Shown here: one piece after another, positions 12,279-63,071 of the stretch | How positions within the stretch are numbered: the stretch's first letter is position 1 | How the letters are laid out: each line of letters opens with the position of its first letter | Source: a virus | Taxonomy: Duplodnaviria > Caudoviricetes | Length of the DNA: 64,000 bases | Virus record (IMG/VR): IMGVR_UViG_3300028840_001835 | Direction: 5' to 3' (one strand) | The notes under the pieces: model-generated | Databases searched by the model: none | Seen by the model: only the letters and a program-made list of their open reading frames with translations | Told to the model about the DNA's origin: nothing | Position numbers and translations under genes: made by a program

Positions 12279-13169
12279 ATGAAAACCAAGCTAACCAAAT
12301 TTATGAAGGGCTACACCAAGAAGGAGAAGGTGCTATTTTTTGATATGCATAATCTCTTATTCAGGTCTCTGTTCGTGTCTCATGGACAGGACCCTCTTGA
12401 CAAGACCTATGGATATTTTAAATTCTTGGTGATGAATGGTATATTTAAGAATATAAAAAACTTTCAACCAACTAAAGTGATAATCGCTTCGGACTCAAGA
12501 AATTATTGGAGGCGTGATATATATCCTGGATACAAGGCATCCAGAAAAGGCATGAGAGATAAATCAGGAATAGACTTTGATCACTTCTTTGGAGTATATG
12601 ACAAATTCATGGAGGATCTTAAAGAGGCGCTTACAATGATTCATTTTCTCGCAGTTCATAGATGCGAGGCTGATGATATAATTGCCGTTCTGACAAAGGA
12701 AAGATTCCAAAAAGATGATGTGGTCAATTACTCGACCGACAAGGATATGTATCAGTTGTTTAAATATAAAAACTATACACAGTTTGATCCAATAAAGAAA
12801 AAATTCATAACACACTTGAATCCAGCCCGGGAATTGGTACTAAAAATACTGACTGGCGATAGAGGTGATGATATCCCCGGCGTCAAGAGCAAATGCGGCC
12901 CTGTTACAGCCCAGCAGATGCTTGACCTGGGGCTAACAAATAGCCTCTTAAACAAGTCGATGGAGGACAATTTCGAGAGGAATAAACAGCTCATAGATTT
13001 CGATATGATACCTTTGGAAATTGTTGAAAAAATTACCTCTGAATTCGATAACTACCATATAAATACATACAATGGTGGAAAAATATTTAACTTTCTTGTC
13101 AAGTATAAACTGAACTTTTTCATAGAGAACTTGCAGGAATTCACACCGTCATTGAAAGAGATAGGTTGA
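12279..13169 (+). CDS. rnh: RNase H / 5'-3' exonuclease (T4 Rnh-like, FEN family)
   Basis: FFDMHN, ASDS..WRRDIYPGYKASR, EADDII, STDKD, GDRGDDIPG. Confidence 0.92.
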   Translation: MKTKLTKFMKGYTKKEKVLFFDMHNLLFRSLFVSHGQDPLDKTYGYFKFLVMNGIFKNIKNFQPTKVIIASDSRNYWRRDIYPGYKASRKGMRDKSGIDFDHFFGVYDKFMEDLKEALTMIHFLAVHRCEADDIIAVLTKERFQKDDVVNYSTDKDMYQLFKYKNYTQFDPIKKKFITHLNPARELVLKILTGDRGDDIPGVKSKCGPVTAQQMLDLGLTNSLLNKSMEDNFERNKQLIDFDMIPLEIVEKITSEFDNYHINTYNGGKIFNFLVKYKLNFFIENLQEFTPSLKEIG

Positions 13170-13666
13170 TGTTAAGATGGTTCGATAGATGGTTTAAGGA
13201 AAAGGTAATGGGAAGATGGTATCAGGGTGAATTTACACCCAAAAACCCAAAGAAATGTATAAATCTTACACTTGGGGGTCAGAAGCCATTCGCCAGATCC
13301 TCTTGGGAAATGCGTTTGATGAATTGGTGCGATTCCAACAAAAATGTGATTAGTTGGGGCTCAGAGATCATCAAGGTACCATATATATTTGAAATCGATC
13401 AAAAGTTACATAACTATTATCCAGATATATGGTGTAAGATCAAAGATAAGGACGGTCTTGTACAGACCTATCTTGTTGAGGTCAAGCCAGATAAACAACA
13501 GAAAAAGCCAGTACCCCCAAGAAATAAAACCCGAAAGGCCATGATGAATTATAACCTGGCCCTCCGAGAATATGTAAAGAATCAAAATAAATGGAAATAT
13601 GCCAAACGTTTTTGTGCGGGGAAAAACTGGAAGTTTAGGATCATCACAGAGAAAATTCTATTCTAG
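13166..13666 (+). CDS. gp4: Head completion nuclease (gp4-like, TnsA N-terminal fold)
   Basis: YQGEF.PKNP.K, RSSWE, WGSE, YYPD, LVEVKP, NQNKW, FRIITEK. Confidence 0.88.
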   Translation: MMLRWFDRWFKEKVMGRWYQGEFTPKNPKKCINLTLGGQKPFARSSWEMRLMNWCDSNKNVISWGSEIIKVPYIFEIDQKLHNYYPDIWCKIKDKDGLVQTYLVEVKPDKQQKKPVPPRNKTRKAMMNYNLALREYVKNQNKWKYAKRFCAGKNWKFRIITEKILF

Positions 13667-15918: not shown

Positions 15919-16602
15919 ATGGTAACCGATACAATATTGGCCAAGGCGTGTCTTGAGTCATATAAAGAAAAAATAATGCCAAACTTAGAAGGGTTTGAAT
16001 GCGATATAATCACAAAGGGAAACGACCGATGTCTCATATTCTATAATGAAAAGGACGTGGTGGTTGTCTTTACTGGCTCTAATGATCTTGAAGATTGGTG
16101 GACGAATGTTCAGTTTATCAAACAGGAGACTCTCTATGGAAAGATACATAATGGTTTCTGGGAGGCATGGCTTGATCTCAGGTCATTGACAAGAACAGCT
16201 CTTGAACGTGTTAATGCGAAAGATAAAAACATATATGTTACTGGACATTCACTTGGAGGGGCTCTCGCTTGTCTATTCTCTGTGGACTCATTCTATAGTG
16301 CATGGATCAAACGACTTGTTACCTTTGGACAACCCCGAGTCGGAAACTGGACATGGAAAGGAAAATTCAAGACGTTAATGGGACCACGGGAATGTGTTCG
16401 ATATATCAATAATCAGGATACGGTCACAAAGATACCATCATTCTTTTTCTTTCATGTGGGACGACCTGTTTACTTTGATAAACATGGAAGAAAGACAATC
16501 AAGAAACCATGGAGCTGGAAATTTATAATTAGAAAGATCAAAGGAATTAATGATCATTCAATGAGAACATACTTTCAGCTTTTGGACGATCATCGGCTTT
16601 AG
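15919..16602 (+). CDS. Class 3 lipase (alpha/beta hydrolase)
   Basis: VFTGS, IHNGF, nucleophile elbow VTGHSLGGALA, TFGQPRVGN, NNQDTV (Asp), DHSM (His). Confidence 0.9.
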   Translation: MVTDTILAKACLESYKEKIMPNLEGFECDIITKGNDRCLIFYNEKDVVVVFTGSNDLEDWWTNVQFIKQETLYGKIHNGFWEAWLDLRSLTRTALERVNAKDKNIYVTGHSLGGALACLFSVDSFYSAWIKRLVTFGQPRVGNWTWKGKFKTLMGPRECVRYINNQDTVTKIPSFFFFHVGRPVYFDKHGRKTIKKPWSWKFIIRKIKGINDHSMRTYFQLLDDHRL

Positions 16603-16751: not shown

Positions 16752-16922
16752 ATGAATCAAAATAAAGAGAAATTTGAACAGGTTGAGGTTGAACTTGACG
16801 ACCAAATATTATTGGAACTGGCACTGGAAGCACATAGACGGGACATAACGTTGAACGCCTTATGTAACGATATACTTCAGAAACACATAAAGGAGAATGA
16901 AACAAAGAATGGCGTCACATAA
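16752..16922 (+). CDS. Small ribbon-helix-helix-like protein (56 aa, not in ORF track)
   Basis: Read manually: MNQNKEKFEQVEVELDDQILLELALEAHRRDITLNALCNDILQKHIKENETKNGVT; AGGA upstream. Confidence 0.6.
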   Translation: MNQNKEKFEQVEVELDDQILLELALEAHRRDITLNALCNDILQKHIKENETKNGVT

Positions 16923-17364
16923 TCCAATATTAAATGAACAGTTTATTGAATCCGTACTCAATAAAGTGATCAAGGCCAGGGTAAAATCGAAAAACAAAAA
17001 ACTCATGGTGCAAAATGTGAAATGTTGGTATGATATGATCCAGGGCGGACTGAGTGTCTCGATTGATCTTAAATATTATAGAATAAGTTATGTGATTAGT
17101 GATTATATACTTCGGGAAAATAATGTCCATGATGTGATGATCGAGGTCGTTAAGAAGTTTGAGTTTGAATTGGAGAAGATCAAAGAATTGTTTTCAAAAA
17201 TAAAGAATAGAAACGATGCGCTCCTGAATTGCAAATCTGATGATAAATTATTGAGAGATTTTTGTATTAATGTAATCAAAGGAAAGATTAAGATTGATGA
17301 CATTAAACAAATTAGAGATGTTGATCAATTTGAAGAGGCTGAATGGATTATAAACCATACTTGA
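16897..17364 (+). CDS. Hypothetical protein with the recurrent ALL..D..LR..C motif
   Basis: 155-aa ORF; KNRNDALLNCKSDDKLLRDFCINVIK. Confidence 0.6.
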   Translation: MKQRMASHNPILNEQFIESVLNKVIKARVKSKNKKLMVQNVKCWYDMIQGGLSVSIDLKYYRISYVISDYILRENNVHDVMIEVVKKFEFELEKIKELFSKIKNRNDALLNCKSDDKLLRDFCINVIKGKIKIDDIKQIRDVDQFEEAEWIINHT

Positions 17365-18665
17365 TGAAGGATGTATATGCCGCGGAGAAGAAAAACCTTT
17401 TCAAGGTCATAAGTTTGTTCGCTGGTATGGGTGGAAGTTCTACCGGTTACCGACTGGCTGGTGGTAATGTAATAGCCGCGAATGAGTTTATGGAATCGGC
17501 ACGAAAAATATACTCTAAAAATTATCCCCATACATTAGTCATACCCGAGGACATACGAAAACTAACGGGTAAAAAGATATTGAACCAAGTAGGATTGAAG
17601 AAGGGGGAGCTGGATGTGCTTGACGGTTCACCGCCATGCGCCTCCTTCTCAAATCAGGTACTAAAGACCAGAGAGAAATCATGGGGAAAGAAAAAGATAT
17701 ATTCAAAAACTGTTCAACGGGTCGATGATCTTTTTTTCGAATTCGCACGAATTTTAAATGAGATTCAACCAAAAGTGTTCATAGCTGAGAACGTCCGCGG
17801 GTTGACTATGGGGAACGCCAAAAAAATACTCGGATCAAAATCAAAGAGCCTGACAGCTTTTGGTAAATTGAAAAAGGATTTAAGTGAGACTCAGACTATA
17901 ACAGAGGCGCTCCGTTCCTGTGGATATAAGGTGTCATTCAAGTTATTAAACTCTCTGGACTTTGGTGTTCCAGAAAAACGTGTTCGACTAATTTTCATAG
18001 GGGTAAGAAATGATATAGACTTTCGGCCATCATTTCCAAAATCAATCAATACAAAACCGATACATGCTAAAGACGTAATTGGCCATCTTCTTTTCAATGG
18101 ATCACAATTCTGGATGAGACCCGATACGGTTGTCTGTAAGACAATGAAGAAATACTTTCCTGCGCTTACTGATCGTGAAGCCATAATGAAGATATCAAGG
18201 GGACAGAATATCAAGGAACTATATGAGTCCATCTATGACAGAACGAATTGGTTCAACACCCATTTCACAATATGTCAGTCCAATCGTCCAATACATGCTC
18301 TAGTCGATAGATGGGAATCAATAGAGGAAGCCAAAGCGATACAGTCATTTCCAGAGGACTTTGATCTACTTCAAGAGAATGTGGAGACAAGAATGTTATC
18401 CATCAACGAGCTGGAAGGTCTAACTGGCCTGGCTAACCATGAAGCAGGATTCAATTGTTGTGATGTGGACAAAGTTTTAAAATTGTCCAAGTTAAACGTG
18501 TCTAGGGATGATAAGTTTTTTAGATTAGATTTTAAGACTAGCAATAAACGTGCTGATGCCATAGGCCATGCTCAGAGTTGGGAGTATATAGGTCGAGCGG
18601 TCCCGCCGCTAATGATGAAGGCAATAGCAAAGCATGTATATGAAAACATATTGAAAGCGGTATGA
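17343..18665 (+). CDS. C5-cytosine DNA methyltransferase homologue 1 (candidate carboxymethyltransferase)
   Basis: Motif I SLFAGMGG, IV GSPPC, VI ENV, VIII PEKRVR, IX QSFPEDF, X variant IGRAVPP. Confidence 0.9.
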   Translation: MDYKPYLMKDVYAAEKKNLFKVISLFAGMGGSSTGYRLAGGNVIAANEFMESARKIYSKNYPHTLVIPEDIRKLTGKKILNQVGLKKGELDVLDGSPPCASFSNQVLKTREKSWGKKKIYSKTVQRVDDLFFEFARILNEIQPKVFIAENVRGLTMGNAKKILGSKSKSLTAFGKLKKDLSETQTITEALRSCGYKVSFKLLNSLDFGVPEKRVRLIFIGVRNDIDFRPSFPKSINTKPIHAKDVIGHLLFNGSQFWMRPDTVVCKTMKKYFPALTDREAIMKISRGQNIKELYESIYDRTNWFNTHFTICQSNRPIHALVDRWESIEEAKAIQSFPEDFDLLQENVETRMLSINELEGLTGLANHEAGFNCCDVDKVLKLSKLNVSRDDKFFRLDFKTSNKRADAIGHAQSWEYIGRAVPPLMMKAIAKHVYENILKAV

Positions 18666-18913
18666 AATTTAGAATTAAACAATACAAATATAATGATTGT
18701 GGGGATATTTATTTTATGTATACCCCTCAGGTTAAACTAGGAATATTAAGTAGTTGGTTAAATATTTATCCAACTCCAACAGATGGTGCCGATGCCTCAA
18801 ATAGTTGTGAATATTCTTATAAGACAAAAAAGGAAGCAGTGAATCTTATTGAAAAATATAAATTTCAAAAAAGAGAAATTAAAATAATAGTAAGTTATCA
18901 AAAGGTCCAATGA
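18662..18913 (+). CDS. Hypothetical protein
   Basis: 83-aa ORF in an AT-rich stretch, overlapping its neighbours. Confidence 0.55.
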   Translation: MKFRIKQYKYNDCGDIYFMYTPQVKLGILSSWLNIYPTPTDGADASNSCEYSYKTKKEAVNLIEKYKFQKREIKIIVSYQKVQ

Positions 18914-19140
18914 AACCAATAGAAGCCAAATATGTATGTAAGATAAAAAATAAATCAATATTTGATACAGGAATTGATATTGATGAAGGCGGGTGGAGTC
19001 TATTTGAAACATTTAAAAAATTCATAAATGAAACTATAGAAATTAATTCAATTGAATATAGATTGATTGGTGTGGATTATCAGAGATGTATAAGCTGGGG
19101 ACAAAAGAGAACCATAATGTTAATGGTGGATGAAATTTAA
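18910..19140 (+). CDS. Hypothetical protein
   Basis: 76-aa ORF, ATGA overlap. Confidence 0.55.
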   Translation: MKPIEAKYVCKIKNKSIFDTGIDIDEGGWSLFETFKKFINETIEINSIEYRLIGVDYQRCISWGQKRTIMLMVDEI

Positions 19141-19450
19141 AATGAATTTTATTACAAGTATAAGCGATGACATTGACGGATGGGTTAAATTAGAAGCAAA
19201 TCTTGATATGGTCAGACATGATTTTCTTGACAAATTAGGAAGATTGATGTTTCTTACTACAGTCAAATATAAAGCAAAGGTGGAAGTGTTTCGATTACCC
19301 GGGGGATTACATAATCTTAATCATACAAAATCAATAACTTTGGTTTTAGAGTTTGAGAGAAAAGGGATAAATAAAGTCGCAGCAATATTAAAGAGTCTAA
19401 AGTTTGACATAAGCCTATTGGAGCGGAATCGTGAATATGTATATGGATGA
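19130..19450 (+). CDS. Hypothetical protein
   Basis: 106-aa ORF in operon. Confidence 0.55.
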   Translation: MKFKMNFITSISDDIDGWVKLEANLDMVRHDFLDKLGRLMFLTTVKYKAKVEVFRLPGGLHNLNHTKSITLVLEFERKGINKVAAILKSLKFDISLLERNREYVYG

Positions 19451-20807
19451 TAGATATAAAGTTCCAACGATGGACGAGGTTCATAAACTATCCTCACAGG
19501 AAAAGTTCAATGTGATTTCATTGTTCGCTGGTATGGGTGGAAGCTCTACTGGTTACCGAATGGCGGGTGCAAAGATACTCGCAGTCAATGAATTTATGAA
19601 GGCGGCTAGGTCAATATATAATAGAAACTATCCAGATACATATATATTCCCCGATGATATACGAACACTAAATGGTGTTCAGATGTTAAAGAAACTTGGT
19701 CTTAAGGTTGGAGAACTTGATCTTCTTGATGGCTCACCTCCTTGCGCCTCATTCTCCATGGCCGGAAAACGGAAGAAGATGTGGGGCGAGGTGAAGGGAT
19801 ATTCATCCACAAAGCAGCGTGTGGACGATCTGTTCTATGAATTTTCAAGGATACTTAAAGATATGCAACCCAAGACCTTCATAGCAGAGAACGTGAAGGG
19901 GCTTGCGCTTGGTGATGTAAAGGCTCTGCTCGGAAACAAGGGTAAGGGACTGGAGAACTTTTTTGGTAAGGCGAGGAATGTGGGTATCATTCATGAGAAG
20001 GATAACATAATTAAGACACTAAGAGCGTGTGGATACAAGGTGTCTTATAAGGTTCTGAATTCAATAGAGTTCGGCGTTCCGCAAATAAGGGAGAGGTTGA
20101 TTTTTGTTGGCGTACGGGATGATCTTGGAATGAGCCCATCATTCCCAGAGGGGAATAAGGGGTTTCGGCAGAGACCGATAAAGGCGGGAGATGTGATGTT
20201 TCCATTCATATTCAACGGCTGTGAGAGGAATCTGACCCACGGGACGAAGGAGTGGGACTATATACATAACTGGTTTAAACCATTAACCACCCTTCATCAG
20301 GTGACCAAGATAGCAAAGAAGAACAACCTCAAAGCGTTCTGCCAGAGGATGCCACGGGATAACTGGTTCTACCCTCATCGGACGATCCTCCAATCAGACT
20401 ATAACATTCATGCGCTGGTCAATAGATACACGGCCGTGAACGAATCAAAATTACTTCAATCATTCCCATCAGACTTTGATGTACTGGGTCAGCCATTCAA
20501 GAGAATAAAAGTTTCAGTCAACGATTTACTTAAAAAGAAATTCAATTGTTATAATTTTCAAGCAGGACAGGACTCTGGAGATATACCATACATTTGTTCT
20601 CTCGTAGATTTTCCAAAGGAACGTTGGGATGAAAAATGTTTCTATCTTGATTTAAAGGAACCAGAGATTAAAGTTGATACCAAGTCACAATATTACAATA
20701 TACTTGGACATAGTAAGTCAAATGAATTTGTTGGAAGGGCCGTTCCTCCTCTATTGATGAAGGCAGTCGCGGAGCATGTATATGAAAAAATCATCTCAAA
20801 AATATAA
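19431..20807 (+). CDS. C5-cytosine DNA methyltransferase homologue 2 (candidate carboxymethyltransferase)
   Basis: SLFAGMGG, GSPPC, ENV, PQIRER, QSFPSDF, motif X variant VGRAVPP; clear paralogue of 17343..18665. Confidence 0.9.
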   Translation: MNMYMDDRYKVPTMDEVHKLSSQEKFNVISLFAGMGGSSTGYRMAGAKILAVNEFMKAARSIYNRNYPDTYIFPDDIRTLNGVQMLKKLGLKVGELDLLDGSPPCASFSMAGKRKKMWGEVKGYSSTKQRVDDLFYEFSRILKDMQPKTFIAENVKGLALGDVKALLGNKGKGLENFFGKARNVGIIHEKDNIIKTLRACGYKVSYKVLNSIEFGVPQIRERLIFVGVRDDLGMSPSFPEGNKGFRQRPIKAGDVMFPFIFNGCERNLTHGTKEWDYIHNWFKPLTTLHQVTKIAKKNNLKAFCQRMPRDNWFYPHRTILQSDYNIHALVNRYTAVNESKLLQSFPSDFDVLGQPFKRIKVSVNDLLKKKFNCYNFQAGQDSGDIPYICSLVDFPKERWDEKCFYLDLKEPEIKVDTKSQYYNILGHSKSNEFVGRAVPPLLMKAVAEHVYEKIISKI

Positions 20808-21156
20808 ACTGCCAGAATTTGAAAATTTATCAATTCCATTAATAAGGAGACAGTTTCCAAAATTATTTGCTAATAAGATTGTTAATGTTCAACCAATGAA
20901 CGGACCGTCTGGGTTGGCTTATGCGTTTATAAACGAGGAAATAAGAAAATTGATAATTAGAATCACGACAAAGAATCAGGCGTTATTATATGTGACCCAT
21001 AATAATAGATTTGTTAGAGAACATTGTATAAACATATTAAAGGAAAAAAACAAAAATGGGAATCGGAGTAAAACTAGGAAATCCTCTAGAAGAAAAACCA
21101 ATCGATCATTTAATGATGAAACTAATGGCTCAGGAGATTCAAAAAGAGATCGATAA
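20776..21156 (+). CDS. Small protein containing a gp23 (major capsid)-like fragment
   Basis: IPLIRRQFPKLFANKIVNVQPMNGPSGLAYAF resembles T4 gp23 MVRRAIPNLIAFDICGVQPMNSPTGQVFA. Confidence 0.55.
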   Translation: MYMKKSSQKYKLPEFENLSIPLIRRQFPKLFANKIVNVQPMNGPSGLAYAFINEEIRKLIIRITTKNQALLYVTHNNRFVREHCINILKEKNKNGNRSKTRKSSRRKTNRSFNDETNGSGDSKRDR

Positions 21157-21241
21157 TATGATACTTAAACAAATAAATAAAATTTCAAAACCCCCAGCAA
21201 TAGAGGTAAAGGTATGCCGTTCTACGATTATCAGTGTGTAG
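21056..21241 (+). CDS. Hypothetical protein
   Basis: 61-aa ORF overlapping both neighbours. Confidence 0.4.
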   Translation: MGIGVKLGNPLEEKPIDHLMMKLMAQEIQKEIDNMILKQINKISKPPAIEVKVCRSTIISV

Positions 21242-21423
21242 GGTGCGATAGAATACAGGAGGAACGACATTCGATCACAGAGACTCCTGAAATCAAATGT
21301 AACTATTGCGCCGCTCCATGTAAAAGACTCATGCCCGGAGATATGAATTACATTCTTAGAGGCGACGGATGGAATGGTAAACGGATAAAGAGAGAAGGAG
21401 AGAAAGGTGGAGAGAGCAATTGA
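21214..21423 (+). CDS. FmdB-family zinc-ribbon protein
   Basis: MPFYDYQCVGC...CNYC...KRLM...LRGDGW; GAGG RBS. Confidence 0.85.
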   Translation: MPFYDYQCVGCDRIQEERHSITETPEIKCNYCAAPCKRLMPGDMNYILRGDGWNGKRIKREGEKGGESN

Positions 21424-21607
21424 TGTTTTACAACGAATGTTAATTCGACAACAGAAGGATATAATGAAAGTCGATGAATATTATAATGAAGTATCCGGAT
21501 GGGGTCTTTTAGAAAAAATTAAAACCAAAAACGATGCGTTGCTATACATGACACATGATAGCAAACTTGTGAGAAATAAATGCAAGGAGATATTACATGA
21601 CAAATAA
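21407..21607 (+). CDS. Hypothetical protein with recurrent C-terminal motif
   Basis: KTKNDALLYMTHDSKLVRNKCKEIL. Confidence 0.6.
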   Translation: MERAIDVLQRMLIRQQKDIMKVDEYYNEVSGWGLLEKIKTKNDALLYMTHDSKLVRNKCKEILHDK

Positions 21608-22295
21608 AGATAATCATTTGAAAAAAGGTTCAAAGGAGTTCTCATTTGATGACATGGAAGATTTCGATACTCATATTGATCTGTCCATACCAAACTACTC
21701 TTTTGTTTTGGAGCAGGTAAGAAATCTATCCGATTATTTCATAGAGGATAACACCAATGTATATGACTTGGGTTGTTCCACTGGAAAATTCCTAAAGTCT
21801 CTTAATAGAAGGGATGGTGTAAGATATGTCGGCATAGATATAAGTAAAAATCTATTGCCCAAGAAGGAGGAATATCCAGATATCCGTTTTGAATGTTCTG
21901 ACCTTCTAAATTATAATGACTACAACACTGCGAGCTTTGTGGTGTCAATGTTTACATTACAATTTCTACCCCTCTCATCAAGAAAGAGATTGATTCAGAA
22001 GATAAACAATTCGTTGATACCTGGAGGTGCATTTATATCTTGCGAGAAGATATATTCCAGTAACGCCAAGTTTCAGGACATTACCAATAGTCTATATTAC
22101 GAGAAGAAAAACGAGCATTTCTCCGGAGACGCCATTCTGCAGAAGGAAAAGGATCTTAGAAAGATAATGAAGATACAATCAATTGAACAGTCGATAAAGG
22201 ACATGGAGGAAATTGGACCTGTCGATATATTCTGGCGCTCCTTTAATTTTGTTGGCTTAATAGCCGTGAGAAAACCATATACATCAGGTCTATAA
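21597..22295 (+). CDS. cmoA: CmoA-like carboxy-S-adenosylmethionine synthase / SAM-dependent methyltransferase
   Basis: FSFDD...SIPNY, YDLGCSTG, GID, MFTLQFL, LIPGGAFISCEK and FWRSFNF parallel CmoA motifs (FDE...SVPGY, YDLGCSLG, NFTLQFL, LNPGG...SEK, WFQCFNF). Confidence 0.8.
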   Translation: MTNKDNHLKKGSKEFSFDDMEDFDTHIDLSIPNYSFVLEQVRNLSDYFIEDNTNVYDLGCSTGKFLKSLNRRDGVRYVGIDISKNLLPKKEEYPDIRFECSDLLNYNDYNTASFVVSMFTLQFLPLSSRKRLIQKINNSLIPGGAFISCEKIYSSNAKFQDITNSLYYEKKNEHFSGDAILQKEKDLRKIMKIQSIEQSIKDMEEIGPVDIFWRSFNFVGLIAVRKPYTSGL

Positions 22296-24792: not shown

Positions 24793-25079
24793 AACAATTA
24801 GATATAAGGGTTTTTCATAGAGAAAAACCTAATGGTGTATATGTATTCATACTTGATGATTGCTTCATTTGTCAGGAGTATCTCAAGGAATTAAAGAAAA
24901 TAGATACATCGGATTGGTATCTAATTGACTGCGGACAGAATGCCGGATATTTTCTTCGACAACATAATGTGGATGATGTTCCACATACCAGAGTATATAT
25001 TGATGGAGAGATCATTTGGGAACGTTCCGGTGCATTATATGAAAAACAAAGACGGGAGTTATTTGAGAAGCTAAAATGA
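24789..25079 (+). CDS. Thioredoxin/glutaredoxin-like protein
   Basis: CFIC redox motif, VPHTRVY cis-Pro loop, WERSG. Confidence 0.65.
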   Translation: MKQLDIRVFHREKPNGVYVFILDDCFICQEYLKELKKIDTSDWYLIDCGQNAGYFLRQHNVDDVPHTRVYIDGEIIWERSGALYEKQRRELFEKLK

Positions 25080-25804
25080 TTCGATACATTGTTGCAGCAG
25101 ATAATGAGGATAACTATAACCGATTTTTAAAACCCTCGCTTGAAAAGATAGAAGCCCTTGATAGGGTTACCCTAGTATTAAATAAGGATTTAGATGAAGG
25201 TATATTCAAGAAATATAACCTTGTCTTAAATATGCTTTCAAGTAAAGGAAAGATCAATGATGAGGATGTGTTTGTTTTTGTACATGATGATGTATCGTTT
25301 GAGGATGAGAATCTAGAGGGAAAGATTGAATTATATTTTAGGTATAAAGATAACATCGGGATTGCTGGAGTAATCGGAACAACCATATTTCCGGCAGAGG
25401 GTGGATGGTGGATGTGCGACCGCTCAAAACGAACAAGGGGTAGAATTATACAAGGTCATCCCGATCAACCTGATCATGTGATGGAAGACAAAAAAGGTAT
25501 GTTTGATGACCTTGTATCGGTTGATGGATGTATATTGTTTATGAGTGGACGATTCCTAAAAGACTTTCGTTTTGATGAACAGACCTATGATGGATACCAT
25601 TTTTATGATGTAGATTCATGCTTCACCGCTTTAAGAAAAGGATTCTCCATTGGTATCATTGATGTATTGGTTAGACATGAATCTGAAGGTCCTCTCTCAG
25701 ACTCTTGGTTTACAGAACGAGACAAATTCATCAAGAAATGGACCGCCAGGGGTATGAAGTTTCCCATTCTTAGGGAACATTTATATCAGAATATAAATAG
25801 TTAA
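25076..25804 (+). CDS. GT-A fold glycosyltransferase (GT2-like)
   Basis: KKYN, FVFVHDDV (DxD-like), GIAGVIG, VDGCILF, FDE..YDGYHFYDVD, VRH. Confidence 0.8.
   Translation: MIRYIVAADNEDNYNRFLKPSLEKIEALDRVTLVLNKDLDEGIFKKYNLVLNMLSSKGKINDEDVFVFVHDDVSFEDENLEGKIELYFRYKDNIGIAGVIGTTIFPAEGGWWMCDRSKRTRGRIIQGHPDQPDHVMEDKKGMFDDLVSVDGCILFMSGRFLKDFRFDEQTYDGYHFYDVDSCFTALRKGFSIGIIDVLVRHESEGPLSDSWFTERDKFIKKWTARGMKFPILREHLYQNINS
25792..25799 (+). promoter_or_regulatory. T4-type late promoter
   Basis: TATAAATA 26 nt before the endolysin start. Confidence 0.7.
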
Positions 25805-60401: not shown

Positions 60402-60480
60402 TGGTAGTCAGGGTGGGACTCGAACCCACACATTAATGCTTTTTGAAAGCACCGCCTCTACCAGATTGGGCTACCTGACC
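60402..60480 (-). tRNA. tRNA-Leu(CAA), short variable arm, encoded CCA
   Basis: Acceptor GGTCAGG/CCTGACT, anticodon arm GTGCT-TTCAAAA-AGCAT, T arm GTGGG-TTCGAGT-CCCAC, ACCA end; 79 nt. Confidence 0.85.
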
Positions 60481-60693
60481 TTGCTCTTTACATTCTTTTG
60501 CCTTGTCACACCAGGACATACATATCTTCTCTAAATTAGGATTTACCATCACTCTCTTACACTTGGGGCACTCCCTCTTTATATCATCCTTCCAGAACTC
60601 GATCTGTTCCTTACAGACCTTACACTGTATCTCAGTGATATCTTCTGGCTTCCAGAAGTTGGGATTCATCCCAGGACATCTATGTATCGGCAT
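60433..60693 (-). CDS. Cys-rich zinc-ribbon small protein, reading into tRNA-Leu
   Basis: CPG...CKVC..IEFWKD...CPKC...NP...C..WC..A..C. Confidence 0.7.
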   Translation of the reverse strand: MPIHRCPGMNPNFWKPEDITEIQCKVCKEQIEFWKDDIKRECPKCKRVMVNPNLEKICMSWCDKAKECKEQGQVAQSGRGGAFKKH

Positions 60694-60699
60694 ATTAAT

Positions 60700-60774
60700 T
60701 GGTGGGTCCGCCCGGAGTCGAACCGGATTCCCAAGGGTAAGAGCCTAGTGCATCGCCGTCAATGCTTCGGACCC
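60700..60774 (-). tRNA. tRNA-Lys(CTT), encoded CCA
   Basis: GGGTCCG/CGGACCC, D stem GCAT/ATGC, loop CTCTTAC, T loop TTCGACT, ACCA. Confidence 0.88.
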
Positions 60775-61424
60775 ATATATCTATTGTAAACTTGTCTATA
60801 TTTAGTTCTAATCTTTCTTATCTTTGCTTTGGGAACACCCTTACATATATTATATATATCTGAGGTCTGATCCCCAATTATATAAGCCTGAATCTCATCG
60901 TTAAAAACATCCTCACAATACTCCATTGTTGATAACCACTTTGTGATTGCTACCTTAACCTCCGTTGGAAGTTCAAATCTGGTCATCTTGTCAATTTCGT
61001 TTTTAAAATTCTCATTCAAATAATATAGGGCATGACACTTCTCATGTTTAAGCGCCGCCAAATCGCCAGCAGTCGCTATTAGATAAAAATGATCATCCAA
61101 TTCAAGATTAACACAGGCCTCCACAAGATGCTTTAGTATGACCTCCCTCTCTCTAAGATCGGTAAACCACTTGAAGAATTTTACAAGTGAGTTTCCGGGT
61201 ATGTTAAACCCCTCAACCTCATCAAAGTAATTAAACGAACCATGCTTCCTGGAATATAAATCCATGTATGTATCCAAGGTGAAATGCTTGCCCTTTATTT
61301 CTTCGAATGAGGACTCATAAAACTCCTGTGGTCTTAACATGGTTGAACATAAATCGAACTGTGTTGGAAACTTTAGATGGATTAACCCATCTTTAAAATT
61401 AACATGAACATCAACCTCTTTCAT
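60759..61424 (-). CDS. Hypothetical protein
   Basis: Likely start MKEVDVH at 61424; the track extension lies inside tRNA-Trp. R.QEFYES, YMD.Y, EGFNIP, HEKCHALY (HExxH-like). Confidence 0.7.
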   Translation of the reverse strand: MKEVDVHVNFKDGLIHLKFPTQFDLCSTMLRPQEFYESSFEEIKGKHFTLDTYMDLYSRKHGSFNYFDEVEGFNIPGNSLVKFFKWFTDLREREVILKHLVEACVNLELDDHFYLIATAGDLAALKHEKCHALYYLNENFKNEIDKMTRFELPTEVKVAITKWLSTMEYCEDVFNDEIQAYIIGDQTSDIYNICKGVPKAKIRKIRTKYRQVYNRYMGPKH

Positions 61425-61439
61425 AGAACCTCTCAAATT

Positions 61440-61513
61440 TGGCAGGCCGCCTAGGAATCGAACCCAGAGCTGATGGTTTGGAGCCATCCATGTTACCACT
61501 ACACCAACGACCT
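61440..61513 (-). tRNA. tRNA-Trp(CCA), encoded CCA
   Basis: AGGTCGT/GCGGCCT, anticodon arm GATGG-CTCCAAA-CCATC, T loop TTCGATT, GCCA end. Confidence 0.92.
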
Positions 61514-61521
61514 ATGATTAT

Positions 61522-62139
61522 TTATGATTCTTTCAAAATCCTTTTTGCGTGTTCTCTCACTATATAGTTATCATCCTTAGAATAAAGAAGGGCCTTGTTC
61601 TTTTTCTCTATGGAATCCATTATCCCGTCCATCTCGTTTATCTTCCAAACATAATCCATCTTCTTGACGATCTTCTCCTTCTGTGTCTGTTTGACCAACG
61701 CCTCATGCCTTTTCCGGACAGAGTCTCTCCACCATATTGGTAAAAGGTTCAACATCAGCTTCTTTAGTGTCCATGGTATCTCTGAATAGAACGGGTCAAT
61801 GATCGTACCGTTCTTCATAAAATCTTTTTTGTTAAACCCTATCCGTATCACGATATCCTTTGTTGGTTCACGTTTCTCACTAAGGAGCGCAAGGAATTCT
61901 CGCTCATCCTTGCCAGGGGTTTCACCATCCATTATATTGGTAAACCTTTCTGGATGCTCATACATGAAAAAGATGGTGTGCTTCATGAATGTGTAATACT
62001 CATGTTTCATATCCCGCCACTTTCGGAATCTGTAGTAAGGATTGATCACTTGAGAGAGAAAAACCCAGGCCATTCTTCTACGAAGTCTCCATCCCGTTAG
62101 TTTGGTAAGTATTTTTCTATCGCCCCATTCCTCTCTCAT
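61522..62139 (-). CDS. Hypothetical protein with recurrent C-terminal motif
   Basis: Ends EKKNKALLYSKDDNYIVREHAKRILKES. Confidence 0.65.
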   Translation of the reverse strand: MREEWGDRKILTKLTGWRLRRRMAWVFLSQVINPYYRFRKWRDMKHEYYTFMKHTIFFMYEHPERFTNIMDGETPGKDEREFLALLSEKREPTKDIVIRIGFNKKDFMKNGTIIDPFYSEIPWTLKKLMLNLLPIWWRDSVRKRHEALVKQTQKEKIVKKMDYVWKINEMDGIMDSIEKKNKALLYSKDDNYIVREHAKRILKES

Positions 62140-62435
62140 CTATAAGTCCTCCCGGAGTATATAGAACGCTCCTCCAGATCCTTAACCCTTTTTTCTAACT
62201 TCTCAATCATCTTTTCAATTTTCCCAAATGGGTTGTCTGTCCATTTGACTTCATATACTTGCTTTGGAATAACTAATTGTATATGAAAGCATGTTGGACA
62301 CCGAAGAACTACCTTATCATTTTCTATCACTGGCTCTGGCAATTTATGCAACGAATCCCTTATACAAGTAAGAGGATGTAAATATTTACTTGTTTGCCAT
62401 TTCTTTATCTGTTCAATTTTCTTTGCATTATTCAA
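62136..62435 (-). CDS. Hypothetical protein (HPxTC...CxxC)
   Basis: YLHPLTC...LRCPTC plus coiled-coil tail. Confidence 0.65.
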   Translation of the reverse strand: MNNAKKIEQIKKWQTSKYLHPLTCIRDSLHKLPEPVIENDKVVLRCPTCFHIQLVIPKQVYEVKWTDNPFGKIEKMIEKLEKRVKDLEERSIYSGRTYR

Positions 62436-62980
62436 AATTCAAATCTCCGTGATTCTACATCGTCCGATTTACCAGTTTCCTCTTCGGGTTCATCTCCGAT
62501 TAATATCTTTCTGCTCATCTTTCTAACATATGTATCGGTATCATCCTTGAACACTATCGCCGATTGAGAGTTGTTCTTCATAGATTCGACTTTAATAAGC
62601 TGAGCCTTAAACGTTTCCAGTCTCTGTTTCTCCTCAGTCATATCAGCATACTCCTTGGTAAATTTATAGCATGCCTCATAGAATAAATCCTTCAACGATT
62701 CCGGCACGTTTGATTTGATCGGTTGTAAGAATCCTCCTTCATCTTTTAACAACGCCATGGAATAGGTAATTTTAAGAGCAATATTCTGAACAAATCCTGT
62801 GGCATCCTCGTTGGCGTAAATGGTATAAGTATAATTTTCCGTGTAATTATCATTAAATGACATCTGAAACACATTTGGATGATCCTTAACGATATTAAGG
62901 ATACCCTTCAATACATCATATTCGGGATACTTCTCCCGATCTTTCTCTATCTGTGTTTTGAACTTTAAAAATTTAAACAT
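62432..62980 (-). CDS. Hypothetical protein
   Basis: 182-aa ORF directly downstream of tRNA-Gly. Confidence 0.6.
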   Translation of the reverse strand: MFKFLKFKTQIEKDREKYPEYDVLKGILNIVKDHPNVFQMSFNDNYTENYTYTIYANEDATGFVQNIALKITYSMALLKDEGGFLQPIKSNVPESLKDLFYEACYKFTKEYADMTEEKQRLETFKAQLIKVESMKNNSQSAIVFKDDTDTYVRKMSRKILIGDEPEEETGKSDDVESRRFEF

Positions 62981-62993
62981 AATTTCAATGTAG

Positions 62994-63071
62994 TGGAGCG
63001 GCCTACGGGAGTCGAACCCGTACTTATAGGTTGGAAGCCTACCGTGCTAATCCATTGAACACTAAGGCCGC
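62994..63071 (-). tRNA. tRNA-Gly(TCC), encoded CCA
   Basis: GCGGCCT/AGGCCGC, anticodon arm GTAGG-CTTCCAA-CCTAT, T arm ACGGG-TTCGACT-CCCGT, TCCA end. Confidence 0.92.

Follow-up and report, generated by a model that had tools for sequence, protein, structure and literature searches.

Which base is written into the DNA of a phage that encodes two cytosine C5-methyltransferase paralogues next to a homologue of CmoA, the enzyme that makes carboxy-S-adenosylmethionine (Cx-SAM)? This question is raised by a stretch of 64,000 nucleotides (the window) from IMG/VR record IMGVR_UViG_3300028840_001835 (Duplodnaviria; Caudoviricetes), which derives from an uncultured marine T4-like phage. Its two transferase genes, here called CmoX1 and CmoX2, and the CmoA gene all lie on the + strand in one co-directional, tightly packed gene run. 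The whole record comprises 202,503 bp with direct terminal repeats and has a completeness rating of 100%.

The original prediction for this locus had proposed cytosine carboxymethylation in two sequence contexts by two diverged writers, and had pointed to a natural CmoA-linked version in a cyanophage. Such a version is indeed known: Synechococcus phage S-B43 has a CmoA-CmoX(-CmoY) system (Yang et al., Nat Commun 2025; PMC12783734). Because the system is already known from a cyanophage, where it was shown experimentally in December 2025, the present locus is a further example of it and no discovery. Homology to the S-B43 enzymes makes it likely that the module of CmoA and two CmoX proteins writes 5-carboxymethylcytosine (5cxmC) in the phage DNA, and this part of the proposal has held up. 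The second part, that two contexts are modified, is plausible from the divergence of the two proteins.

The S-B43 system provides the standard for comparison. Its DNA cytosine C5-carboxymethyltransferase, SpCmoX, has been crystallized with Cx-SAM (8YF3), accepts Cx-SAM only, and writes 5cxmC at GC motifs (PMC12783734). Arg350 of SpCmoX, which occupies the position of Asn304 in M.HhaI, contacts the carboxymethyl group in the crystal, and the R350N variant is inactive with either cofactor (PMC12783734). The third component, CmoY, belongs to the asparagine-synthase type of amide ligases and turns 5cxmC into a glycine amide, and the virion DNA of S-B43 holds only the amide and no free 5cxmC (PMC12783734).

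Two transferases of the CmoX type

Both transferases carry the motifs FAGMGG (motif I), SPPC, ENV, RxR (motif VIII), and GRAVPP (motif X). The best match of each among sequences in the PDB is SpCmoX, a monomer (8YF3; E 3.4e-65 for CmoX1 and 2.5e-65 for CmoX2), and the next-best solved relative of both is M.HaeIII, at about 1e-16. The GRAVPP motif of both proteins aligns to GR350MVPP of SpCmoX with high posterior probability (HMMER and MAFFT), such that the motif X arginines map to Arg350, the carboxylate-binding residue. The original prediction had described two paralogues with PC, ENV, and GRAVPP, including the arginine codons CGA at 18594 and AGG at 20736, and was accurate in motifs, coordinates, and codons.

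The motif X arginine is no chance feature: its column is invariant in 57 of 57 aligned homologues. Among the 120 best homologues from a large protein collection, SPPC is present in 119, and a Gly-Arg motif X is found in all but P0117 (109 by pattern match and 10 by eye). SPPC is one of the two criteria used to search for CmoX in PMC12783734, and at the level of sequence both window proteins have every feature by which CmoX is defined there. The active-site Glu of ENV and the motif VIII Arg, which are the cytosine contacts, are kept in both.

An AlphaFold2 model of CmoX1, built on the 57 homologues, reaches a predicted local distance difference test score (pLDDT) of 91 and a predicted template modeling score of 0.92. 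Its top Foldseek match is again 8YF3 (E 5e-27; target-normalized template modeling score 0.84). Recovery of close relatives of these proteins from IMG/VR needed an alignment-based scan, as a scan with a single protein gave only matches of 38% identity or less. Some CmoX homologues on other contigs (P0016-P0018, P0021, and P0023) are 616-648 amino acids (aa) long and carry intein/Hint domains (PF14890, PF13403, PF07591) inside the transferase.

A phage-type CmoA beside the transferases

The CmoA-like gene had been placed about 0.8 kb downstream of the second transferase in the same run; its start lies 790 nucleotides past the end of CmoX2, and its product matches the NCBIfam model TIGR00740 over the full length (E 8e-36, 123.9 bits). 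Matches among solved structures include 1IM8 (E 1e-23) and 4GEK (E 1e-21). Among phage proteins its closest relatives are the CmoAs of S-B43 and sister cyanophages; tblastn gives an identity of about 38%, and the pairwise alignment one of 42%. Compared with E. coli CmoA, the cofactor-site residues Tyr39, Asp62, Gly64, and Ser66 and the FTLQF strand are kept, and the position of E. coli Asn132 is occupied by Met.

Table 1. Positions in the window of the modification genes and of features within them
Feature	Position	Strand	Basis
CmoX1, long-form Arg-type cytosine C5-carboxymethyltransferase homologue, 440 aa	17343..18665	+	PF00145 E 3e-47
SPPC of CmoX1 (aa 96-99, catalytic Cys99)	17628..17639	+	columns conserved in 56-57 of 57 homologues
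CmoX1 motif VIII Glu211	17973-17975	+	EKRVR
CmoX1 target-recognition region, aa 226-308, between motifs VIII and IX	18018..18266	+	30% identical to CmoX2
CmoX1 insert 2, aa 344-407, between motifs IX and X	18372..18563	+	alignments; absent from SpCmoX
CmoX1 Arg418 codon CGA	18594..18596	+	position of SpCmoX Arg350 and M.HhaI Asn304
CmoX2, second long-form Arg-type homologue, 458 aa, GTG start	19431..20807	+	PF00145 E 6e-45
SPPC of CmoX2 (aa 102-105, catalytic Cys105)	19734..19745	+	
CmoX2 Arg436 codon AGG	20736..20738	+	equivalent to SpCmoX Arg350
Phage-type CmoA, carboxy-SAM synthase homologue, 232 aa	21597..22295	+	TIGR00740
CmoA Glu184-Arg188 (E-K-D-L-R)	22146..22160	+	alignment of six phage CmoAs, this one included, with that of E. 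coli

A candidate route to 5-carboxymethylcytosine

If the three proteins act as their homologues do, the phage CmoA would make Cx-SAM from host S-adenosylmethionine (SAM) and host prephenate. The SPPC cysteine of CmoX would then attack C6 of a flipped-out cytosine, and the carboxymethyl group of Cx-SAM would move to C5, with the motif X arginine (Arg418 in CmoX1 and Arg436 in CmoX2) holding the carboxylate of the cofactor. The expected product is 5cxmC in phage DNA, written after replication, whose likely use would be protection from host restriction. The known picture of how such a system works is unchanged by the present findings.

The gene content of the phage bears on the supply of both cofactor and substrate. 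Neither chorismate mutase nor SAM synthetase is encoded in the genome according to family searches, and therefore the host must supply both CmoA substrates. CmoX1 and CmoX2 are the only genes of PF00145, the Pfam family of C-5 cytosine DNA methylases, in the whole genome. Furthermore, no gene of the thymidylate-synthase family, such as a dCMP hydroxymethylase, was found in the genome, and thus there is no sign of a 5-hydroxymethylcytosine pathway that would take away the C5 substrate.

Divergence of the two writers

Within cytosine C5-methyltransferases, the region between motifs VIII and IX is the reader of the target sequence. Over their whole length CmoX1 and CmoX2 share about 47-48% identity, which is unevenly spread, with 57-65% in the catalytic blocks, 30% in the target-recognition region, and 22% in a segment here called insert 2. 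Insert 2 comprises about 64 residues and is present in 21 of the 57 aligned homologues, which together are termed the long form. Both writers of the window belong to this form and also have a disordered insert of about 20 residues after motif VI. For CmoX1, insert 2 is predicted to be folded, with a strand at residues 347-352, helices at 369-372 and 375-382, and a further strand at 393-398, all with a pLDDT of at least 90. At E values up to 5, Pfam matched neither insert 2 nor the target-recognition regions. A CmoX subfamily with an additional, predicted folded insert is a point of interest in its own right.

Phylogenetic trees place the long-form proteins in one clade with support of 100/100. 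CmoX2 clusters with P0015, P0019, and the second copy of the related contig L014 (95/91), and CmoX1 clusters in a different subclade with P0002, P0003, and the first copy of L014 (100/97 in an earlier tree). Because the two proteins fall into separate subclades, each with its own orthologues, the trees indicate that the duplication is old and that both copies have been retained.

Conserved cores combined with a diverged target-recognition region and a diverged insert make two different short sequence contexts the most likely outcome, and the old paralogues would then cover these contexts between them. Judged from this divergence, it is more likely than not that the two writers have different targets.

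How common are paired writers and the ligase?

The frequency of such arrangements was estimated from a sample of 80 IMG/VR loci that encode a CmoX. CmoA is present in 59 of these loci, CmoY in 31, and CmoA without CmoY in 30. Two CmoX genes occur in 11 of the 80, with 10 of the pairs in tandem, and the related contig L014 has two as well. In each of the 11 pairs SPPC and the Gly-Arg motif are present in both copies, which are 50-66% identical to each other, and CmoY accompanies 6 of the 11 as well as the pair of L014. Several independent duplications are seen in the tree within the clade of short-form proteins.

These pairs show that the duplicated-writer arrangement, which had been expected to be new, is a recurrent variant. 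Nor is the family confined to cyanophages, as its wide occurrence outside them has been reported before (PMC12783734). Candidates counted there across IMG/VR, UniProt, and MGnify amount to 5,615 phage CmoX proteins, 4,257 CmoA proteins, and 2,251 ligases, and the main text makes no mention of "two CmoX" or "paralog" (PMC12783734). As a recurrent architecture, paired and diverged CmoX proteins could serve as a source of carboxymethyltransferases with new specificities for DNA labeling and sequencing chemistry. The present locus adds to the recently described phage 5cxmC systems a complete genome that is distant from those of cyanophages.

Fate of the modified base

A CmoY-type ligase would process 5cxmC further. 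Searches of the complete genome yielded no match to Pfam PF00733, no match to SpCmoY itself in a protein search, and nothing by tblastn with four queries (the S-B43 protein and those of three close relatives). When a hidden Markov model (HMM) of 28 CmoY homologues was run without filters (--max) against all six-frame open reading frames (ORFs), the best E value was 0.07, which is no match. A ParB_N homologue is also absent from the genome. The related contigs differ from one another in this respect: L014 encodes CmoY, two CmoX, and CmoA; L015 and L016 encode CmoX, CmoY, and CmoA; and L019 encodes CmoX and CmoA with no CmoY within 10 kb.

Given that the complete genome holds no CmoY-type amide ligase, 5cxmC would probably be left as the final mark and not be converted to the glycine amide. 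Bare 5cxmC as the terminal mark of this phage is, on balance, slightly favored. A broader proposal, in which the long-form insert and the diverged target regions read non-GC motifs, the paralogues write two motifs, and bare 5cxmC is terminal, can be offered as a whole only tentatively. If true, bare 5cxmC would serve as a terminal genomic mark, a role so far undemonstrated in any natural virion, given that the virion of S-B43 has the glycine amide only.

Weighing the interpretation

Several observations weigh against the assignment of this module to 5cxmC synthesis. The score of the window CmoA lies below the equivalog cut-off of TIGR00740 (193.3 bits). SpCmoA, which has been validated biochemically, likewise falls below this threshold at 115.6 bits, and thus the cut-off shuts out the phage clade as a whole. 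A second discrepancy concerns Arg199 of E. coli CmoA, which forms a salt bridge to the Cx-SAM carboxylate (PMC3663124). This Arg is absent from the window protein, where its position is held by Glu184 (QKEKDLR), as had been noticed by eye and raised as a caveat from the start. When E. coli CmoA is aligned with the CmoAs of the window, S-B43, L014, L015, L016, and L019, all six phage proteins have Glu or Asp at the Arg199 position, together with an invariant Arg at i+4 (Arg188 in the window protein; E. coli has Glu203). This pattern resembles an exchange of charges between positions on the same helix face, in which Arg188 may take over the role of E. coli Arg199. Because active SpCmoA has the same Glu/Arg arrangement, Glu184 is no evidence against Cx-SAM synthesis, and the caveat can be lifted. 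The carboxylate-binding Arg of phage CmoAs thus appears to be shifted by one helical turn, a displacement that would cause annotation pipelines to fail to call these proteins CmoA.

Other points against the assignment carry over to its individual parts. Motif VIII of CmoX1 reads EKRVR, whereas the other 56 of the 57 aligned homologues have QxRxR. The changed residue, Glu for Gln, is not among the two named cytosine-contact residues, and it is no assembly error, since an identical CmoX1 protein is found on six independent assembled contigs. The modification itself is predicted from genes, and a supply of prephenate by the host is assumed. Similarly, the proposed difference in specificity between the writers is deduced from their divergence. 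Lastly, the ligase searches were centered on the asparagine-synthase family.

One alternative is that 5cxmC is only an intermediate, which an unrecognized enzyme of a family other than the asparagine synthases turns into a further hypermodified base. S-B43 offers a precedent, as its virion DNA contains the ligated product and no free 5cxmC (PMC12783734), and in the close relatives L014, L015, and L016 CmoX has an Asn_synthase gene next to it. The genome has many ORFs without annotation, and a Glyco_tranf_2_5 gene is found 3 kb downstream. However, the location of this glycosyltransferase is conserved whether or not a relative has CmoY, and it therefore does not track the ligase, and the Pfam, tblastn, and HMM searches of the complete genome gave no CmoY. 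CmoA also occurs without CmoY in the 30 sampled loci mentioned above, and L019 has the same arrangement within 10 kb. An intermediate role is thus considered unlikely. A similarly low probability is assigned to redundancy of the writers, in which both would recognize the same or overlapping targets and the second copy would serve dosage, timing, or robustness against host inhibitors. The two genes do share one run, in which no promoter signal of their own exceeded chance level, and little extra coverage may be needed if a motif as short as the GC read by SpCmoX (PMC12783734) is the target. Yet the paralogues are old, each has its own orthologues in other phages, and their differences lie mainly in the segment with which this enzyme family reads DNA. 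The recurrence of diverged pairs in the sampled loci further suggests maintained sub-functionalization and not transient duplication.

It is far less probable that one or both transferases are ordinary SAM-dependent enzymes that make 5-methylcytosine, or that CmoX1 is impaired, and that the CmoA-like gene serves SAM depletion or RNA modification. The unique Gln-to-Glu change in motif VIII of CmoX1 would fit such an explanation, as would the loss of Arg199, the residue that defines bacterial CmoA, and SAM depletion by CmoA has been proposed as a possible side effect (PMC12783734). Nevertheless, wild-type SpCmoX takes only Cx-SAM and its R350N variant takes neither cofactor (PMC12783734), and the motif X Arg is invariant throughout the alignment. 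The Glu/Arg arrangement of the window CmoA is that of validated SpCmoA, and no homologue of CmoB turned up in scans made for other purposes, although no search aimed at CmoB was made. Synthesis of 5cxmC by CmoA and the two CmoX proteins hence remains the preferred interpretation.

Relation to known systems

Like S-B43, the window phage has a CmoA gene beside a C5-methyltransferase homologue with SPPC and a cofactor-pocket Arg, in a T4-like, myovirus-type genome of about 200 kb. Unlike S-B43, which has one CmoX and a CmoY, it has two CmoX genes, both long-form, and no CmoY in its genome. The genes of the window are also placed differently, between a class II ribonucleotide reductase (RNR)/lipase pair and a sliding clamp, and are spaced by small ORFs. 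Moreover, the window phage is far from cyanophages (about 32% identity in DNA polymerase) and lacks psbA, and its sequence stems from metagenomes of sediment and seawater.

Two other systems provide partial parallels. The engineered M.MpeI N374K enzyme (reference 21 in PMC12783734) similarly carries a basic residue in place of the motif X Asn and makes 5cxmC from Cx-SAM; it is a Lys variant of a CpG methyltransferase, whereas the window proteins are natural, have Arg, and belong to the CmoX lineage. The bacterial CmoA/CmoB pathway for 5-carboxymethoxyuridine in tRNA is represented by E. coli CmoA (4GEK, 4IWN) and H. influenzae YecO (1IM8), with which the window CmoA aligns over the full length. 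The acceptor in that pathway is 5-hydroxyuridine in tRNA, whereas for the window, by analogy with S-B43, it would be cytosine in DNA. The window protein also differs from the bacterial enzymes in having Glu for Arg199 with Arg at i+4, Met for Asn132, and a score under the family cut-off.

The nearest architectural parallels are contigs with two CmoX genes in IMG/VR and Logan (for example L014, L039, L041, L069, and L099), where a tandem, diverged pair of Arg-type CmoX genes is followed by CmoA. L014 shares both long-form enzymes and T4-like synteny with the window, and its second copy groups with CmoX2. Most other pairs differ in being short-form (370-399 aa) and 50-66% identical, and the separation of the two CmoX genes by three small ORFs is a feature of the window.

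Genome and neighborhood

The module resides inside a T4-like replication cluster. Upstream of it lie, in order, UvsX, a gp41-like helicase, gp32, primase, RNase H, a TnsA-like endonuclease, class II RNR, and a class 3 lipase. These are followed by CmoX1, three small ORFs, CmoX2, further small ORFs, CmoA, a probable sliding clamp, and the clamp loader. Linkage of CmoX and CmoA inside the same replication module is also kept in the relatives L014, L015, L016, and L019. Adjacent ORFs of the modification run often overlap by a few bases. Inside this gene run, no T4 late promoter, sigma-70-like promoter, or terminator was found above chance. A comparison at the DNA level for flanking repeats, which would be a sign of cassette mobility, detected nothing beyond the similarity of the two paralogous CmoX cores.

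The sequence of the record is present in one sediment metagenome and one seawater metagenome. A megablast search of INPHARED with the 5-kb region gave no match. Compared with cultured T4-like phages, the DNA polymerase reaches an identity of no more than about 32%, the best of these distant matches being to cyanophages, and a family search found no psbA in the genome. Since the polymerase is only distantly cyanophage-like and psbA is missing, the description of this virus as a non-cyanophage is plausible.

Certain neighboring genes are recorded here as separate observations. The TnsA-like endonuclease gene (13166-13666, + strand), between RNase H and class II RNR, has a position that is conserved in L014, L015, and L019. 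The class 3 lipase gene (15919-16602, + strand; PF01764 E 1e-25) is directly upstream of the CmoX run and within the replication module. Downstream of the clamp loader, about 3 kb past the modification genes, the Glyco_tranf_2_5 glycosyltransferase is encoded at 25076-25804 (+ strand), a position conserved in relatives both with and without CmoY. Four tRNA genes (Leu-CAA, Lys-CTT, Trp-CCA, and Gly-TCC) are clustered at 60402-63071 on the - strand.

Three small ORFs on the + strand abut or overlap the modification genes, one at the 5' end of CmoX1 (16897-17364), one at the 3' end of CmoX2 (20776-21156), and one at the 5' end of CmoA (21407-21607). They have in common a HEAT-like C-terminal motif of about 33 residues, K.K..N[DQ]ALL...[LF][VL]R..C..[IV][IL], for which no PHROG or Pfam match was found. 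A weak fourth copy is present near 61528-61659 on the - strand, and tblastn within the genome links the copies at E values from 1e-6 to 2e-4. The ORF at 20776-21156 encodes 126 aa, of which the first 50 or so resemble the N terminus of the major capsid protein of T4 (Pfam Gp23 1.2e-8; phrog_138). It may be a small protein with a capsid-propeptide-like leader. This N-terminal segment is 59% identical to the product of C1:104457-104567 in the same genome, which is probably the real capsid gene, and similar Gp23-like ORFs of 82 aa are found near CmoX in the relatives L016 and L017.

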